Shown here piece by piece: positions 23,418 to 37,586 of a stretch of DNA of 64,000 bases. Numbering within the stretch: the stretch's first letter is position 1; the number at the start of each line of letters is the position of its first letter. The stretch is from Candidatus Marinacidobacterales bacterium (lineage in GTDB: Bacteria; Acidobacteriota; Vicinamibacteria; Marinacidobacterales; SMYC01): NCBI GenBank assembly GCA_965237955.1, contig OZ250169.1, positions 3,520,001 to 3,584,000 of the forward strand, read 5' to 3'. Position numbers and translations under genes: made by a program. The notes beneath the pieces are model-generated. The model was not told the origin of the DNA. It did not search any database and was given only the letters and a program-made list of their open reading frames with translations.

Positions 23418-24504
23418 TGCCTTGGTGCACAACTCCGATAGAGGCCGAGAGCTCGCTTGGCCCCGACTCCCATCATCCGATCATCTCGCTATCAGGCATC
23501 CCGAGCGCCGTCATCGTGTTGAGAATCTTGCACCCGATCCTTGCCTCGACTCTCTGTGCCGCCAACCCTCTCGCTCGCATCGCTGAGCCCACGATAGCCT
23601 TGTAGCGATGGAACGTTGTCTCGACTTTGATCCGTTTGCTGTAGCCCGATTCTGTGTGCCACTTTCGTTTGCCGAGCCGAGCTTGTGCTGCAATGTTGCG
23701 ATTGCGCTGTCGGCTGCTCGCCGGCCCCGATGCGAGCTGGGCGCCCTTGCGCGGCGGTATCAGCACCCTCGGCGAGCAATGAGCGCTGTGATTCTCGATC
23801 GCCTCATAGACGCCGCTGGCGTCGTATGCGGTGTCAGCTCTGGCCGATGAGATGGGACTGTCGATCTGTCCGACAAGCGATGCAACCCGCGATGAATCGC
23901 GGGCTCTTTTGCTCGTCAGCTCGCCGGCGACGACTTCGCCACGCTGCTCGTCGACACACAGATGGAGCTTGCGATAGTCCCTGCTCTTTGGTGCTCTGCG
24001 CAGCTGGCCGGCGTGGACAGCGAGACCGCTGCTGTCGATCAAGATGTGCAACGGCGTCTTGTGCTTGTCTTGGTAGAAGGGGACCTTACCCAGCTTCGCC
24101 TTGCGCCTCGAGATCGTGGTGTGATCGGGCACATCATTGTCTAGCTTCATCAGAGCGAACAACGATCGCAGCAATCCCTCGCTCTGCCTAGATGACAGAT
24201 GAAACACCATGCCCAGGGTGACAGCCGTCTCGATGGCGTGGTTCGAGTACTTGCGTTGACGGCCCGGTTTCCTCCTCCTCGGCCGGGGCGCGTCCCAGTT
24301 CACAAGCTTGCCGGCGGTGAGCGAGATCCAGACGGTCAGGCTCCCACGGTTGCGTAGACCCGCCTCATATTCACGCCAATTCCTCACGCGATAGGCCTTC
24401 TTCACATACTTCCGCTGAGTGCGTTTGAAAATGCTCATGGGGAACCTCGAATCCGTGAGTAAAGGACAATTGTGGACCGAGATCGCGAGTTGTGCACCAA
24501 GGCA
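23418..24504 (-). mobile_element. IS5-family element, copy 2 (1087 bp; transposase 23473-24438)
   Basis: Same TIRs and near-identical transposase as copy 1. Confidence 0.95.
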
Positions 24505-27730: not shown

Positions 27731-27850
27731 GGTTGCTTCCGCCATCAAGTGTTGGTGATATGACGCTAAGACTTTACGGTGCATTAAGTTACAGCCACAA
27801 TATCGCTCGTGACCTTCGCTGCGCGCTAAATGGAGCGTAAGCGCCTCTTT
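27731..27850 (+). mobile_element. MITE type A, truncated left part
   Basis: Homologous to 59740-59850 (TGCTTCCGCCAT.AA.TGTTGGTGA.ATGACGCTAAG...GCTAAATGGAGCG). Confidence 0.65.
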
Positions 27851-27951
27851 GGTGCTTCCGCCATCAAGTGATGGAATGGACTCCTCCGCTGACATAGACG
27901 GCATCGATGTGCCAAAGTCAGTCGAATACGCATCGAAAAGGAGGAGTCCGA

Positions 27952-28984
27952 ATGAAAGATACGACGATCGCTGTGGATCTTGCAAAGAACGTCTTCGAGA
28001 TTGCCATCTCGGGAGAAGCGGGGAAGGTGTCCAAGCAACTCCGTGTGAGTCGACCCAAGTTGGTGTCGTTTTTTTGCCAAACAGAGCGCTGCCACCGTGC
28101 TTCTCGAAGCCTGCGGCTCTGCTCACTTCTGGGCAAGGACGTTCCGAAGGTTGGGACACGACGTCGTCCTGCTCCCACCTCACCTCGTGAGGCCCTATCG
28201 ACGCGGGAGCAAGAACGACCGCGCCGACGCCAAAGCGTTGCTCGAGGCCTACAGGAACGAGGAGATTCTTCCCGTGCCCATCAAGTCCGTGCACCAGCAC
28301 AGCCTCGCCGCGCTCCATCGCCTGCGCTCAGGATGGCTCTCCACACGGACCGCACGCATCAATGCCGTACGCGGGATCCTGCGCGAACTCGGATTCATCA
28401 TCCCAAAGGGCGCTCACTTCGTCGTGCCCGCCCTCTTCGAACTCGTCGAAGACGCTGATTCTGATTTGCCCGACGTGCTCCGTTCGCATCTCCGTGATGC
28501 CTGCTCCGAGATTCGAGAACTCAAGGACAAGTGCGCTGGCATCGAGCACGAGCTCAAGGCGCTCACCAAGCAGCTTCCTGAAGTCCAACGACTTCTCGCC
28601 ATTCCCGGCATCGGACTTCTGACCGCGACCGCCATCGTGGGCTTCGTCGGCGATCTTCGCCGCTTCCCATCGGGGCGCCGCTTCTCGAGCTACCTCGGCC
28701 TGGTTCCCAAGGAAAACTCCAGTGGCGACATTCGCCGCTTCGGACGCATCACCAAGCGTGGCGACTCCTACGTCCGTATGCTCCTCACCCAGGGCGGGCG
28801 CGCCGTGCTCCGCGCGGCGAACGTCAGTAAGAGCCCGCCCGACAAGCTCCGCGCCTGGGCTCGGAAGGTCCACCGCTCGCGGGGACACAACAAGGCCGTG
28901 ATTGCTGTCGCCAACAAACTCGCCCGGATCGTCTGGGCCGTCTCCACCCGCGAGAGTGAATTCCAGTCGCCCGTGGCCGCTTAG
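27952..28984 (+). CDS. IS110 DEDD recombinase; one extra T in a T7 run at 28069-28075
   Basis: IAVDLAKNVF, LEAC, KNDRADA, IPGIG, YLGLVPKENSSG, ITKRGD and AVANKLAR motifs. Confidence 0.92.
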
Positions 28985-29029
28985 ACTTAGAGGCTCCACT
29001 TTCGTGTTTTCCTTTTTCCCTTCCAAAAG

Positions 29030-29215
29030 AGGCTGCGACGATACCCATCCAACTGATGGCGTACCGGTCGGACCGGCGCGGGGTCAAGCCGATAGCAACA
29101 CTGGCCCTAAGAGGTCGTTCAAAGTGATTGGCTCCTCGCGCGCGGATTTTCCATCATGGCCCGGAGCACCCAAGACGCTCCTCACTGAGGCCGAAGATAC
29201 GTTTGCAGTCTGACC
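29030..29215 (+). ncRNA. Putative bridge/seek RNA of the IS1111 element
   Basis: ATAGCAACACT (29092-29102) is the reverse complement of target AGTGTTGCTAT. TTCCATCAT (29149-29157) is the reverse complement of donor junction ATGATGGAA. Partner segments are TCAAAGTG and AGATACG. RNA boundaries are approximate. Confidence 0.8.
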
Positions 29216-29321
29216 CATTCGTCACGACGCGATGGATACGCAGCTTCGATGGAAGATTTATTAAGAAAGGGGCTTGACTAGAGGAGTCCAGATATGTTGC
29301 TATGCCGTGTTTGAATGCTAG

Positions 29322-29446
29322 TCCCCTGTATCAGAACAAACTAGATAAAGCAGAGCTTGCCGAAACCATTCTAAGTGCATGAATCTTATGAATCTTATGG
29401 GCTGGCGAAAAGCCTAACTTTGTATAGTAATCAAAGATCCAGGGGA
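29322..29446. mobile_element. 125-bp MITE with CTAG target duplication
   Basis: CTAG-TCCCCTGTATC...GATCCAGGGGA-CTAG; the empty site GAATGCTAGTGTCAG is present in the neighbouring type B copy. Confidence 0.8.
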
Positions 29447-29650
29447 CTAGTGTCAGCTGGTCTGCCTGTGTCGGCGAACGCCATTAATTAAGGATGTCGG
29501 CGTGCACACGAAGGTGTCCCTGAACGTCAGGCACCGTGTGGTCAGCCCAGCCCGCATCGCCGAAAGAACTGCGTCTCTCGAAATCAGGCTCAAACTCTAG
29601 CACACGAGCGGGTTACGCGGCAGCCACCAACACTTGATTGCGGAAGCACC

Positions 29651-29889
29651 TCAAGTGTTGCTACCCCGCTAGAGGCATTTGAATGCTAGTGTCAGTTGGT
29701 CTGCGTGTGCTGGCGAACGCCATTAATTAAGGATGTCGGCGTGCACGCGAAGTTGTCTCTGAAAGTCAGGCACCGCGTGGTCAGCCCAGCCTGCATCGCC
29801 GAAAGAACTGCGTCTCTCGAGATCAGGCTCAAACTCTAGCACGCGAGCGGGTTACGCGGCTGCCGCCAACACTTGATTGCGGAACTACC
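29651..29889 (+). mobile_element. MITE type B copy 2, tandem, left TIR shortened
   Basis: About 200 bp closely repeats 29447-29650 and ends CAACACTTGATTGCGGAACTACC. Confidence 0.75.
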
Positions 29890-33227: not shown

Positions 33228-33344
33228 ACGCCCTTGGAATCCGCCGACCCTTGGGCTGCGTGGCGAGCTACGGGCAGTGAACTTCGCACCCGGAAGTCCT
33301 TTATTAGACTGGACTTTATCGAGCACAAGAGCGAACGTTCGGTG

Positions 33345-33782
33345 ATGCCGCAGGATACAGGGGTTGGCCGGAACGTCGTTTTGGACGGTTTGGACTTCGC
33401 CAGCTTACGGCGGGTCTGGGAGCAGGCCTTCGGGGCTGCTCCCCCACGCTCGCTCTCTCGCGTTTTCATGCGCCGCGTTCTCTTGCACAAACGCCAGTGC
33501 CGTACCCATGGCGGGCATTCGGCCACAACCCGGCGCGCTCTGGCTGCCATGGCGAACGGGACGCCAGGCAACGGCGCCGCCGCTCCCGCAGGATCCGTTT
33601 CCCCCGGTACCCATCTCGTCCGCGAGTGGAATGGCCGGACCTACCAGGTCGAGGTAATCGACAACGGCTATCGGTTCGATGGCAAAACCTATCCGTCCCT
33701 CACGGCCATCACAAAGCAAATCACCGGCACCCACTGGTCAGGACCACGCTTTTTCGGTCTGACGCCCAAGCGCAAGGCCTAA
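33345..33782 (+). CDS. DUF2924 domain protein
   Basis: PGTHLVREWNGRTYQV...YPSLTAITKQITGTHWSGPRFFGL. Confidence 0.88.
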   Translation: MPQDTGVGRNVVLDGLDFASLRRVWEQAFGAAPPRSLSRVFMRRVLLHKRQCRTHGGHSATTRRALAAMANGTPGNGAAAPAGSVSPGTHLVREWNGRTYQVEVIDNGYRFDGKTYPSLTAITKQITGTHWSGPRFFGLTPKRKA

Positions 33783-33783
33783 C

Positions 33784-34925
33784 ATGAAGAAAATCCGCTG
33801 TGCCATCTATACGCGAAAGAGCGCGGAAGAAGGTCTCGAGCAGGAGTTCAACTCCCTCGATGCGCAGCGAGAAGCCTGCGCCGCGTATGTCGCGAGCCAC
33901 AAGGCGGAAGGCTGGGTGCTGCTGCCAACCGTCTACGAGGACGCGGGGATCTCGGGAGGAACCCTGGAGCGCCCGGGCCTACAGCGCTTGCTCGCCGACA
34001 TCGATGCCGGTCTCGTCGAGCAGATCGTGGTCTACAAGGTCGACCGGCTGACCCGTTCCCTCTCCGACTTTGCAAAGCTCGTCGAGCGGCTCGAGGCGGC
34101 CGGCGCGGTTTTCGTCTCGGTGACTCAGTCCTTCAACACCGCGACCAGCATGGGACGACTGACGCTGCATATGCTGCTGTCCTTCGCACAATTCGAACGC
34201 GAGGTCACGGCCGAGCGGATCCGCGATAAGGTCGCTGCCTCCAAGCGCAAGGGACTATGGATGGGCGGCCGCGTACCGCTAGGCTATGAGAAGGACGGGC
34301 GCACGCTGCGCATCAACGAGGCTGAGGCCGAAACGGTCCGGACGCTCTATGCGCTGTACCGGAAGCACGGAACGCTCCGGCAGGTGAAGGCCGACGCGGA
34401 CCGTCTGAGACTGCGCACCAAGCGACGCTTCGCCGCGGATGGAACCCGGACAGGCGGGTTGCCGTTCCGTCGCGGACACCTCCACTGCCTGCTGACCAAT
34501 CCTCTCTACGCCGGCCGCATCCGGCACCAGAGGCGTGTCTACGAGGGCCAGCATCCATCGATCATTGCTCCGGAGCTCTGGGACACGGTCCAGGCGCAGC
34601 TGCAGGCAGGGGCTGCCAAACCAAGGAGACGCACGACGAAGGGCCGTGCAGCCCGTTCCCCACTGGCAAGCAAGCTCTTCGACGAGACCCGGGACCGGCT
34701 GACGCCGAGCCACACCAAAAAGAAAAACGGGCAACGGCTCCGCTACTACGTCTCCCGGCGCCTCATCCAGCACAGTGGCCAAAAGGACCTCTCCGGCTGG
34801 CGGCTGCCCGCCCCGATGCTGGAACAGACCGTCGTGCATCTCATCCGACAGCATGTGGATGCCACGACTTTCTCGGCCTCGTTGATCCACACTCCGACGA
34901 TGCAAGAGAGCTTGCCTCGGTGGGT
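33784..34925 (+). pseudogene. Large serine recombinase (resolvase + recombinase domains), 3'-truncated
   Basis: CAIYTRKS, SLDAQRE, SGGTLERPGL, VYKVDRLTRS, SFAQFERE, GGRVPLGY and LLTNPLYAG motifs; runs into IS5. Confidence 0.92.
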
Positions 34926-36012
34926 TGCCTTGGTGCACAACTCCGATAGAGGCCGAGAGCTCGCTTGGCCCCGACTCCCATCATCCGATCATCTCGCTAT
35001 CAGGCATCCCGAGCGCCGTCATCGTGTTGAGAATCTTGCACCCGATCCTTGCCTCGACTCTCTGTGCCGCCAACCCTCTCGCTCGCATCGCTGAGCCCAC
35101 GATAGCCTTGTAGCGATGGAACGTTGTCTCGACTTTGCTCCGTTTGCTGTAGCCCGATTCTGTGTGCCACTTTCGTTTGCCGAGCCGAGCTTGTGCTGCA
35201 ATGTTGCGATTGCGCTGTCGGCTGCTCGCAGGCCCCGATGCGAGCTGGGCGCCCGTGCGCGGCGGTATCAGCACCCTCGGCGAGCGATGAGCGCTGTGAT
35301 TCTCGATCGCCTCATAGACGCCGCTGGCGTCGTATGCGGTGTCAGCTCTGGCAGATGAGATGGGACTGTCAATCTGTCCGACAAGCGATGCAACCCGCGA
35401 TGAATCGCGGGCTCTTTTGCTCGTCAGCTCGCCGGCGACGACTTCGCCACTCTGCTCGTCGACACACAGATGGAGCTTGCGATAGTCCCTGCTCTTTGGT
35501 GCTCTGCGCAGCTGGCCGGCGTGGACAGCGAGACCGCTGCTGTCGATCAAGATGTGCAACGGCGTCTTCTGCTTGTCTTGGTAGAAGGGGACCTTACCCA
35601 GCTTCGCCTTGCGCCTCGAAATCGTGGTGTGATCGGGCACATCATTGTCTAGCTTCATCAGAGCGAACAACGATCGCAGCAATCCCTCGCTCTGCCTAGA
35701 TGACAGATGAAACACCATGCCCAGGGTGACAGCCGTCTCGATGGCGTGGTTCGAGTACTTGCGTTGACGGCCCAGTTTCCTCCTCCTCGGCCGGGGCGCG
35801 TCCCAGTTCACAAGCTTGCCGGCGGTGAGCGAGATCCAGACGGTCAGGCTCCCACGGTTGCGTAGACCCGCCTCATATTCACGCCAATTCCTCACGCGAT
35901 AGGCCTTCTTCACATACTTCCGCTGAGTGCGTTTGAAAATGCTCATGGGGAACCTCGAATCCGTGAGTAAAGGACAATTGTGGACCGAGATCGCGAGTTG
36001 TGCACCAAGGCA
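34926..36012 (-). mobile_element. IS5-family element, copy 3 (1087 bp; transposase 34981-35946)
   Basis: Same TIRs and transposase as copy 1. Confidence 0.95.
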
Positions 36013-36549: not shown

Positions 36550-37380
36550 TCAGGCCGCCGTCTCGGGGTCGGGCGCGCTCGCACCGACGAGCGCCCAGCT
36601 AATGCAACGTTCCGCGTCATCAAGACAACTAGCCGCGCCGGAATCCTTAAGGAATGCTACTCCAGGCTTGACCAGACAGCAGGGAAACTCTAGAGCCAGA
36701 TCCGCCGGTAGTGTCGCCGCCAACCAGGCCAAGCCCTTCGTCACGCCCCCGCCCGTCCAGGCGGTCACGCAACGAACCAGGACGCGCCGCTCGGCTCCCT
36801 CGATAAGCCAGCCCACCGCGCCGGTCCAGGTGTTCCTGATGCTGAGCGCGTAATAGGGGAATCCTGGCAATGGCACCGCCTTGCCACCGATGGCTACCTC
36901 GACGGTAGAACGCAATGCGGCCAGCGTCTCGAGTCGTACATCCGAGCGTGGCGTCTTCTCTGTGTGGCAGGTTGATAGGGTGTAGTGGAACATCACCTCA
37001 CCGCCGCTCATTCTGCGGCTTGGCAGCGTCCGGGGCTCGGCAGCGTCCGGCTCAGCAGCCTCCGGCTCAGCAGCCTCCGGCTCGGCAGCGTCCGGCTCGG
37101 CAGCGTCCGGCTCAGCAGCGTCCGGCTCAGCAGCGTCCGGCTCAGCAGCCTCCGGCTCAGCAGCGTCCGGCTCAGCAGCCTCCGGCTCAGCAGCGTCCGG
37201 CTCAGCAGCGTCCGGCTCAGCAGCCTCCGGCTCAGCAGCGTCCGGCTTGGCAGCGTCCGGCTCAGCAGCGTCCGGCTCAGCAAGAACAGCGGTGATTCGT
37301 GGAACTAGCTTATGCAGCAGCTTCTCCACCTGTGCCACCAACTCCGATGTCAGCTCGGCAATCGTTTTATTGTCTTTCAT
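36550..37380 (-). CDS. Hypothetical protein with acidic AEP(D/E)A repeats; possibly two genes, the second starting MFHYTLST at 36993
   Basis: 276-aa ORF with an internal GAGGTG-ATG start; the last repeat unit is out of phase. Confidence 0.55.
   Translation of the reverse strand: MKDNKTIAELTSELVAQVEKLLHKLVPRITAVLAEPDAAEPDAAKPDAAEPEAAEPDAAEPDAAEPEAAEPDAAEPEAAEPDAAEPDAAEPDAAEPDAAEPEAAEPEAAEPDAAEPRTLPSRRMSGGEVMFHYTLSTCHTEKTPRSDVRLETLAALRSTVEVAIGGKAVPLPGFPYYALSIRNTWTGAVGWLIEGAERRVLVRCVTAWTGGGVTKGLAWLAATLPADLALEFPCCLVKPGVAFLKDSGAASCLDDAERCISWALVGASAPDPETAA
37017..37281. repeat. 15-bp tandem repeat (CCGGCTCAGCAGCGT and variants), about 17 units
   Basis: Directly visible array; 16 in-frame pentapeptides plus one shifted unit. 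Confidence 0.95.
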
Positions 37381-37473: not shown

Positions 37474-37586
37474 GGTGCTTCTGCCATCAAGTGTTGCTTC
37501 AGTTGGCCTGCCTGTGCCGGCGAACGCGTCGTGTCCAAAAATACAAACGAACTCAAGATCGGCACGCCGGGACGTTTCGGAATAGA
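37474..37586 (+). mobile_element. MITE type B left end cut by an rve type 2 IS end
   Basis: GGTGCTTCTGCCATCAAGTGTTGCT, then CGTCGTGTCCAAAAATACAAACGAACTCAAGA matching the reverse complement of 63635-63693. Confidence 0.7.

Follow-up and report, generated by a model that had tools for sequence, protein, structure and literature searches.

IS1111 elements probably guided by RNA into one position of an IS1-like and MITE terminal repeat, with tandem duplications anchored at their junctions

In the IS1111 group, a guide RNA encoded at the right end of the element, the order of its guides and a promoter formed at the circle junction are established (passages of PMC11187229). Right-end guide RNAs, their natural reprogramming and the targeting of TIRs are all in print, as far as the passages cited here go (PMC11187229, PMC11208160, PMC11208158, PMC13626964, PMC12288879, PMC13604230, and two bioRxiv preprints). 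Because this type of system has already been published, the core finding of this analysis is a clean natural example of it. The named protein closest to the recombinase studied here is that of ISPa25 (46% identity over 343 amino acids), an element that targets attC (PMC11187229). ISPa25 has the same left-end start, RNA layout, left TG, and target-derived right CG. However, ISPa25, ISKpn4, and ISPst6 have attC targets, whereas our element sits in a linear TIR of an IS1-like element and MITEs, and its target starts with TG. IS4321 and IS5075 also occupy one position in the TIR of another element, that of the Tn21 family (mentioned in PMC11187229). As judged from their descriptions, they differ from our element, whose host is IS1-like with MITEs and whose recombinase is closer to that of ISPa25.

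IS621 shares with our element the DEDD and serine domains and one long and one short guide per loop, and its cut position and C/G preference fit our junctions if the geometry is flipped (as given in PMC11208158). In contrast to IS621, our element has its RNA at the right end, a reversed guide order, long subterminal inverted repeats (IRs), no identical donor and target core, and donor segments that lie in a helix and a multiloop. By-products in which a recombinase repeats or circularizes element sequence are known from CazIS110-1 (tandem cargo repeats) and ISPpu9 (modular minicircles). CazIS110-1 moves by single-strand copy-out, with full-length tandem cargo repeats as a 3% by-product in the portion of the preprint cited (bioRxiv 10.1101/2025.10.25.684509). 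Those by-products use proper ends or end-like boxes, whereas the duplications described below use an arbitrary upstream NG partner and also include host DNA beside the left junction. With a probability of roughly 0.88, we consider that the IS1111 recombinase is steered by a predicted right-end RNA of ~180 nt into a fixed position of the IS1-like/MITE TIR and that tandem duplications at its junctions are likely its by-products.

We analyzed a window of 64,000 nt, which is the whole stretch of DNA under study. The element spans 1426 bp (27869 to 29294, plus strand; 27871 to 29296 is equivalent for the window copy), and deleting these 1426 bp from the sequence restores the empty site, as the sequence-only reading had claimed. 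The sequence contains subterminal IRs at 27877 to 27886 (plus strand) and 29281 to 29290 (minus strand) that pair perfectly over 10 bp and match at 10 of 11 bp. They leave extensions of 7 nt on the left and 3 nt on the right, the same lengths as in the IS1111 rule (stated in PMC11187229). The DEDD recombinase gene (27952 to 28984, plus strand) is frameshifted in the window copy, where a T run at 28069 to 28075 has seven residues instead of the six found in 14 near-identical copies with a 343-amino-acid open reading frame (ORF); the gene had correctly been read as one T too long. The extra T occurs in the window copy only and is also missing from the contigs of public sequencing runs. There are 17 full-length copies in the genome, 16 at the TIR and one 91% paralogue elsewhere; apart from the window copy and the 14 near-identical ones, one is truncated otherwise and the paralogue is intact, for a total of 15 intact copies. 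An intact genomic copy encodes a RuvC-like DEDD domain (D9, E52, D89, and D92) and a C-terminal Tnp domain with the motif GL-P----SG (SG at 257-258), and its protein scored 309 bits against the IS110 profile NF033542 (cutoff, 140). The element belongs to the IS1111 group of the IS110 family, an assignment first made from the letters alone and borne out by this score, the two Pfam domains, and the DEDD and SG motifs. The subterminal repeat recurs at 27940 to 27949, where this second copy overlaps the recombinase ribosome-binding site and could pair in the mRNA with the left repeat (27878 to 27887). A third related element persists in this genome as a fragment (G000:C1:5560833-5561020) that ends inside the first target guide.

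Next, we examined where the copies are inserted. The 20-nt target repeat has 199 matches in the genome, 25 of which bear the left end of the element, always after the same AAG. Whether other copies share the TIR position had been posed as a check, and 25 of 25 left ends lie at the repeat in one position. Right ends joined to TGTTGCTA numbered 18 in the genome. Among 21 perfect AAG/TGTTGCTA sites, 18 were filled and 3 were empty; in contrast, none of the 18 A-type ends that deviate by one or more mismatches was filled (12 single copies and 6 copies of a TTGCTT variant, with one chance match dropped), nor was any of the 117 opposite, B-type ends in the genome, although these occupancy counts are not independent, given shared descent and amplified MITEs. 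In related Acidobacteriota MAGs ("Candidatus Marinacidobacterales"), 56 of 62 left ends were at the same TIR position and 6 were off target; L004 joins a B-type right flank. The site and orientation were fixed and target duplication was absent in the genome copies and in the relatives, in agreement with the absence of target duplication described for the group (PMC11187229).

The sequence-only reading had named a MITE end as the target. The target is indeed a multicopy TIR, but it is not confined to MITEs; the repeat forms the TIR of MITEs of ~240 bp and also that of an autonomous 1197-bp element encoding an IS1-like transposase, one copy of which has IS1111 inserted in its end. This transposase scored 78.8 bits against NF033558 (cutoff, 100; E value, 5e-22), with a weak match to the Zn-finger model and a PF03400 score below the cutoff, and because the score is below the IS1 cutoff, we call the host element IS1-like only. 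Among the facing TIR pairs listed, the flanking duplications were 0 to 3 nt, and a target-site duplication as in the IS1 family was not found. A literature search found no report of an IS1-like TIR as a target. Both of the empty candidate sites predicted near 29653 and 37489 exist. The former is a perfect AAG/TGTTGCTA site, but the outer 13 nt of its TIR are gone; the latter has the mismatch TTGCTT and belongs to the six-copy variant, with none of the six filled in the genome. In two IS1-like ends (G000:C1:3087636 and 7995397, minus strand), the target is missing because 3 nt are deleted at the insertion site; these may be excision scars or escape alleles. A control of breakpoint positions for such deletion-type scars at the TIR was noisy, with no clean peak, and therefore we do not claim lone AAG/other ends as recombinase products.

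The tail between the recombinase stop codon and the element end is 310 nt, and a bridge RNA or long seekRNA is predicted at 29032 to 29209 (plus strand), closed by a stem of 29032 to 29036 with 29205 to 29209. All four guide segments that had been proposed are present. The first target guide (ATAGCAACACT, 29092 to 29102, plus strand) complements the top strand right of the cut, over 10 nt in most sites, and the second (TCAAAGTG, 29119 to 29126, plus strand) matches the AAG left of the cut, the first target base, and an invariant G. The two donor segments lie at 29149 to 29157 and 29195 to 29201. The chance of such a complement in the 286-nt noncoding end is ~1e-4 for an 11-mer and ~2e-3 for a 9-mer. 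The perfect 11-nt target complement reported earlier is present in the window copy, but its 11th match is peculiar to that copy; this position was C in 16, G in 1, and T in 1 of the 18 filled sites. Because T occurs there in only 1 of 18 filled sites, we take the working match to be 10 nt. With a long noncoding region 3' of tnp and a top-strand match that precedes the bottom-strand match, the locus has the IS1111 arrangement.

We then compared guides with flanks among relatives. For the 13 distinct guide sets whose two flanks were both known, the own-target scores added up to 150, compared with a permuted mean of 72.9 (standard deviation, 8.5; maximum, 127 in 100,000 permutations), with a significance inflated by relatedness among the 13 guide sets and with counts subject to the same shared descent and MITE amplification as those for occupancy. 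In 13 of 13 guide sets, the second guide matched 2 to 6 contiguous bases left of the cut. The 91% paralogue, a single intact copy (G000:C1:5245812-5247238, minus strand), has both target guides changed along with its flanks. Guides that stay invariant across relatives with different targets would have spoken against RNA guidance; instead, they track the flanks in the relatives and in the paralogue. Together, the saturated target set, with its filled sites and its mismatched empty ones, and a 91% paralogue with another guide offer a specificity code and a candidate tool.

Folding of the single sequence was uninformative (z = -1.3, guides partly buried). A comparative fold of 29 sequences gave an outer stem, a target arm, and a donor hairpin, with 92.8% of cells paired and a covariation of 0.198, compared with at most 0.068 in slid controls. 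The prediction that the four guides would lie in two internal loops held for the target half, where a single large internal loop contains the two target guides, but the donor segments are in a helix and a multiloop. On the window copy, the comparative structure is less stable than the minimum free energy (MFE) structure (-64 versus -72 kcal/mol, constrained), and the latter pairs much of the first target guide. Read coverage in the RNA runs is not evidence of expression. Among relatives, the first target guide is displaced relative to the cut by 0 to 2 nt, although the loop strand has a constant length of 11 nt; a fixed IS621 geometry does not explain this displacement. Handshake pairing was considered but is not part of the proposed reading; it fits the post-exchange state here (AT and TT following the second guides), yet no covariation was apparent by eye in relatives.

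The donor side is less simple. The first donor segment (TTCCATCAT, 29149 to 29157, plus strand) complements the left end of the element, so the 9-nt complement to the donor junction claimed earlier is real, but it lies within a covarying RNA-RNA helix and not in a free loop. The left-end hexamer recurs upstream (29054 to 29059, plus strand), and this copy pairs with residues 29151 to 29156 of the segment in a helix with 91% of cells paired and two-sided changes in 4 of 6 pairs. The second donor guide (AGATACG, 29195 to 29201, plus strand) matches the right end, with a C that mismatches the T of the window target, and is unpaired in the multiloop of the comparative fold, a location also noted for IS1111 in the text of PMC11208160. 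In the seekRNA model, the target loop is the sole guide, the donor segments serve as scaffold within the RNA, and the protein reads the ends through the subterminal IRs. Among 26 relatives, the first donor segment paired better with the RNA hexamer in 6 and with left-end DNA in 2, with 18 ties; ISPa25 adds a compensatory change on the RNA side of the helix; and an 82-nt, target-only seekRNA of ISEc11 supported movement (reported in PMC11187229), all of which favor that model. It is harder to reconcile with L122, L124, and L093, where the donor segment changes together with the left-end DNA, or with the near-invariant AGATA, which matches the right end and is followed by T as the sixth base in the L031-type variant, which has T as the first base of its target. 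Circle formation by CazIS110-1 also needed the full-length RNA, in the part of the preprint cited (bioRxiv 10.1101/2025.10.25.684509). On balance, guidance by the target loop alone is a serious but doubtful alternative, and the first donor segment probably serves in the helix and as a guide alike. The donor-mimic helix may already be on record in the long-seekRNA folds of the PMC11187229 supplement.

Duplications of 16 to 793 nt that end exactly at element junctions formed 17 types in three genomes, 12 at right ends and 5 on left sides. At the right end in this genome, partial tandem repeats of the tail were found at 4 of 18 filled loci, with 6 junctions of 4 types (292 to 473 nt) that connect AGATA to a site inside the element. 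On the left side, upstream host DNA was repeated at 5 of 25 occupied TIR ends (5 types, 16 to 79 nt, ending at AAG). One left-side array has 7 extra units: at G000:C1:2861986-2862327 (minus strand), seven units of 48 to 62 nt, each ending at the target AAG and with three junction types among them, stand directly before an IS1111 copy. Unoccupied TIR ends had duplications in 0 of 133 cases (117 B-type and 16 empty A-type ends), and tandem repeats near the ends of control elements were found at 0 of 215, 2 of 215, 0 of 281, and 4 of 303. Two other genomes contributed 8 further right-end types (19 to 793 nt). In one of them, L193 (G012:C9:514556-515910) has the element followed by six partial tail repeats (19 to 454 nt) and thus seven right ends in total; this variant has two donor-guide bases changed, and its genome contains 6 off-target left flanks. 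Left-side duplication was not found in the loci of these two genomes, except for repeated empty sites in L050. An independent short-read RNA run contained one more such junction, in which 29294 is linked back to an internal CG at 28762 (one contig, depth of 5).

All 17 junction types join NG; 11 start with TG and 6 with CG, GG, or AG. The probability of G as the second base in 17 of 17 types is 0.28^17, or ~4e-10, if the types are independent. The right-end partners were more similar to the left end (P = 0.002) than to the target (P = 0.08), and arrays combine several unit lengths. The simplest reading of these sequences is that the duplications would arise by an excision-type exchange in which just one junction is guide bound and the partner lies nearby on the same molecule or its sister; misfires of the recombinase at one junction are thus the likely source. 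Host recombination, replication slippage, off-target self-insertion followed by deletion, or an assembly artifact could produce repeats less directly. For these, the TG start in 11 of 17 types is a 2-nt microhomology with the normal junction, and tandem repeats near the ends also occur, in small numbers, in other elements (2 of 215 and 4 of 303). Because one right-end junction is common to two loci and one left-side junction to three, some of the duplications are copies of one event. Yet the 6 types starting with CG, GG, or AG put the break exactly at the cut, without microhomology, and the uniform G, the likeness of the partners to the left end, the occurrence in three genomes and a short-read run, and the mixed unit lengths all speak against such origins, which we regard as unlikely.

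We favor, at somewhat better than even odds, the wider reading of these misfires that IS1111 recombinases can join an RNA-bound junction to almost any NG 16 to 800 nt upstream, repeatedly, and that a conserved 5' donor-mimic helix gates the donor guide. By the same reading, such repeated joining would amplify the guide-RNA gene, to up to seven right ends per locus, and would build arrays of flanking host DNA. A literature search of openly accessible main texts found no partial, junction-anchored duplications reported, and the word "tandem" had no match in the text searched of PMC11208160, PMC13626964, and PMC13604230. We consider the duplications to matter more than the guide RNA. If they are by-products of the recombinase, they are a class of rearrangement that bridge editing should be checked for, and in genomes they contribute gene amplification on a small scale.

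The junction dinucleotides revise one part of the sequence-only reading, which had proposed a TG core. Left junctions are nearly always TG, an invariant element sequence, whereas right junctions open with CG, CC, or TG according to the target, including in ISPa25. Because the left TG is fixed by the element and the right dinucleotide is set by the target, TG on both sides is an accident of the window target. The IS621 combination of two simple internal loops with a 2-nt core that is the same in donor and target was not found here, and the core differs in most relatives. The second base of the junction dinucleotide is C or G, and IS621 has a defined cut position and a C/G preference at core position 8 (given in PMC11208158). 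By analogy, this junction pattern would be expected of an IS621 geometry turned around, in which the bottom-strand cut separates the left flank from the dinucleotide.

From these features, a cycle can be proposed. An intact copy would provide the recombinase, with the window copy served in trans, and the element would be copied out as a circle whose junction builds a promoter. A -35-like TTGACT (29274 to 29279, plus strand) would in the circle stand 18 nt from an extended -10 sequence, TGGAAT (27872 to 27877); we looked for a promoter match in the linear element and found none, and the contigs of four DNA-type and four RNA runs contained no right-end-to-left-end circle joint. To the right of the cut, the target loop would then pair with the top strand over 9 to 10 nt, and to the left of the cut with the bottom strand over at least 3 nt. 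With IS621 geometry and flipped DNA, the bottom strand would be exchanged first, which would leave the element's TG at left junctions and the first two bases of the target at right junctions. A partial tandem duplication would arise when one junction is engaged and its partner is a nearby upstream NG rather than the proper end. How IS1111 differs from IS621 is left open in the cited passages of PMC11187229; the strand-of-origin pattern and the donor-segment helix each yield a testable prediction on this point. That protein or DNA structure picks the target, with copies spread passively in the MITE and guide matches as relics, is highly improbable: a target stem-loop does raise the specificity of ISPpu10 (cited part of bioRxiv 10.64898/2026.03.19.712850) and some copies have common outer flanks, but near-identical insertion sequence (IS) copies fill several MITE subfamilies and the autonomous IS1-like element, the L031-type variant inserts outside any TIR at guide-matching sites (L036 and L037), and guides vary with targets.

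Several distant metagenomic relatives (L050, L055, L087, L090, L091, and L124) flank attC-like hairpins; upstream of L050, its site recurs twice in empty form, an arrangement like that of a cassette array, and the insertion site of the paralogue is possibly attC-like. In a quick tree, the paralogue and the TIR-targeting copies formed one group (SH-aLRT, 95), with L080, whose guide is like that of the paralogue, outside it; the tree did not settle the branching order of the paralogue versus the TIR-targeting pairs. Because of these relatives, the best match to ISPa25, and the tree grouping, the lineage likely, although not provably, arose from attC-targeting ancestors by a change of guide.

Around the insertion, the outer part of the targeted A-type TIR of the IS1-like MITE lies at 27851 to 27868 (plus strand), and its inner part resumes at 29295. 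Two insertions split the host MITE of ~245 bp (27851 to 29650), namely the IS1111 element and an unrelated MITE that has CTAG at either end (29318 to 29450; 118 BLAST matches in the genome). The host MITE has its untargeted B-type TIR at 29628 to 29650 (minus strand). Directly adjacent, at 29651 to 29889, is a second copy of the host MITE with a truncated A end, which holds the perfect empty site at 29653. The untargeted B-type TIR of a further MITE lies at 27732 to 27754 (plus strand), and the empty A-type variant that mismatches the guide lies at 37474 to 37498 (plus strand). Elsewhere in the window, 23418 to 24504 and 34926 to 36012 form a pair of elements with 18-bp TIRs, which we take to be IS5-like, and their end motif has 215 matches in the genome. 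One of them breaks a region (33234 to 35094) with a small ORF and a recombinase-like gene, presumably of the serine type given its N-terminal motif. At 36989 to 37333, a 15-nt tandem repeat codes for AAEPD/E units within an ORF at 36550 to 37380 (minus strand).
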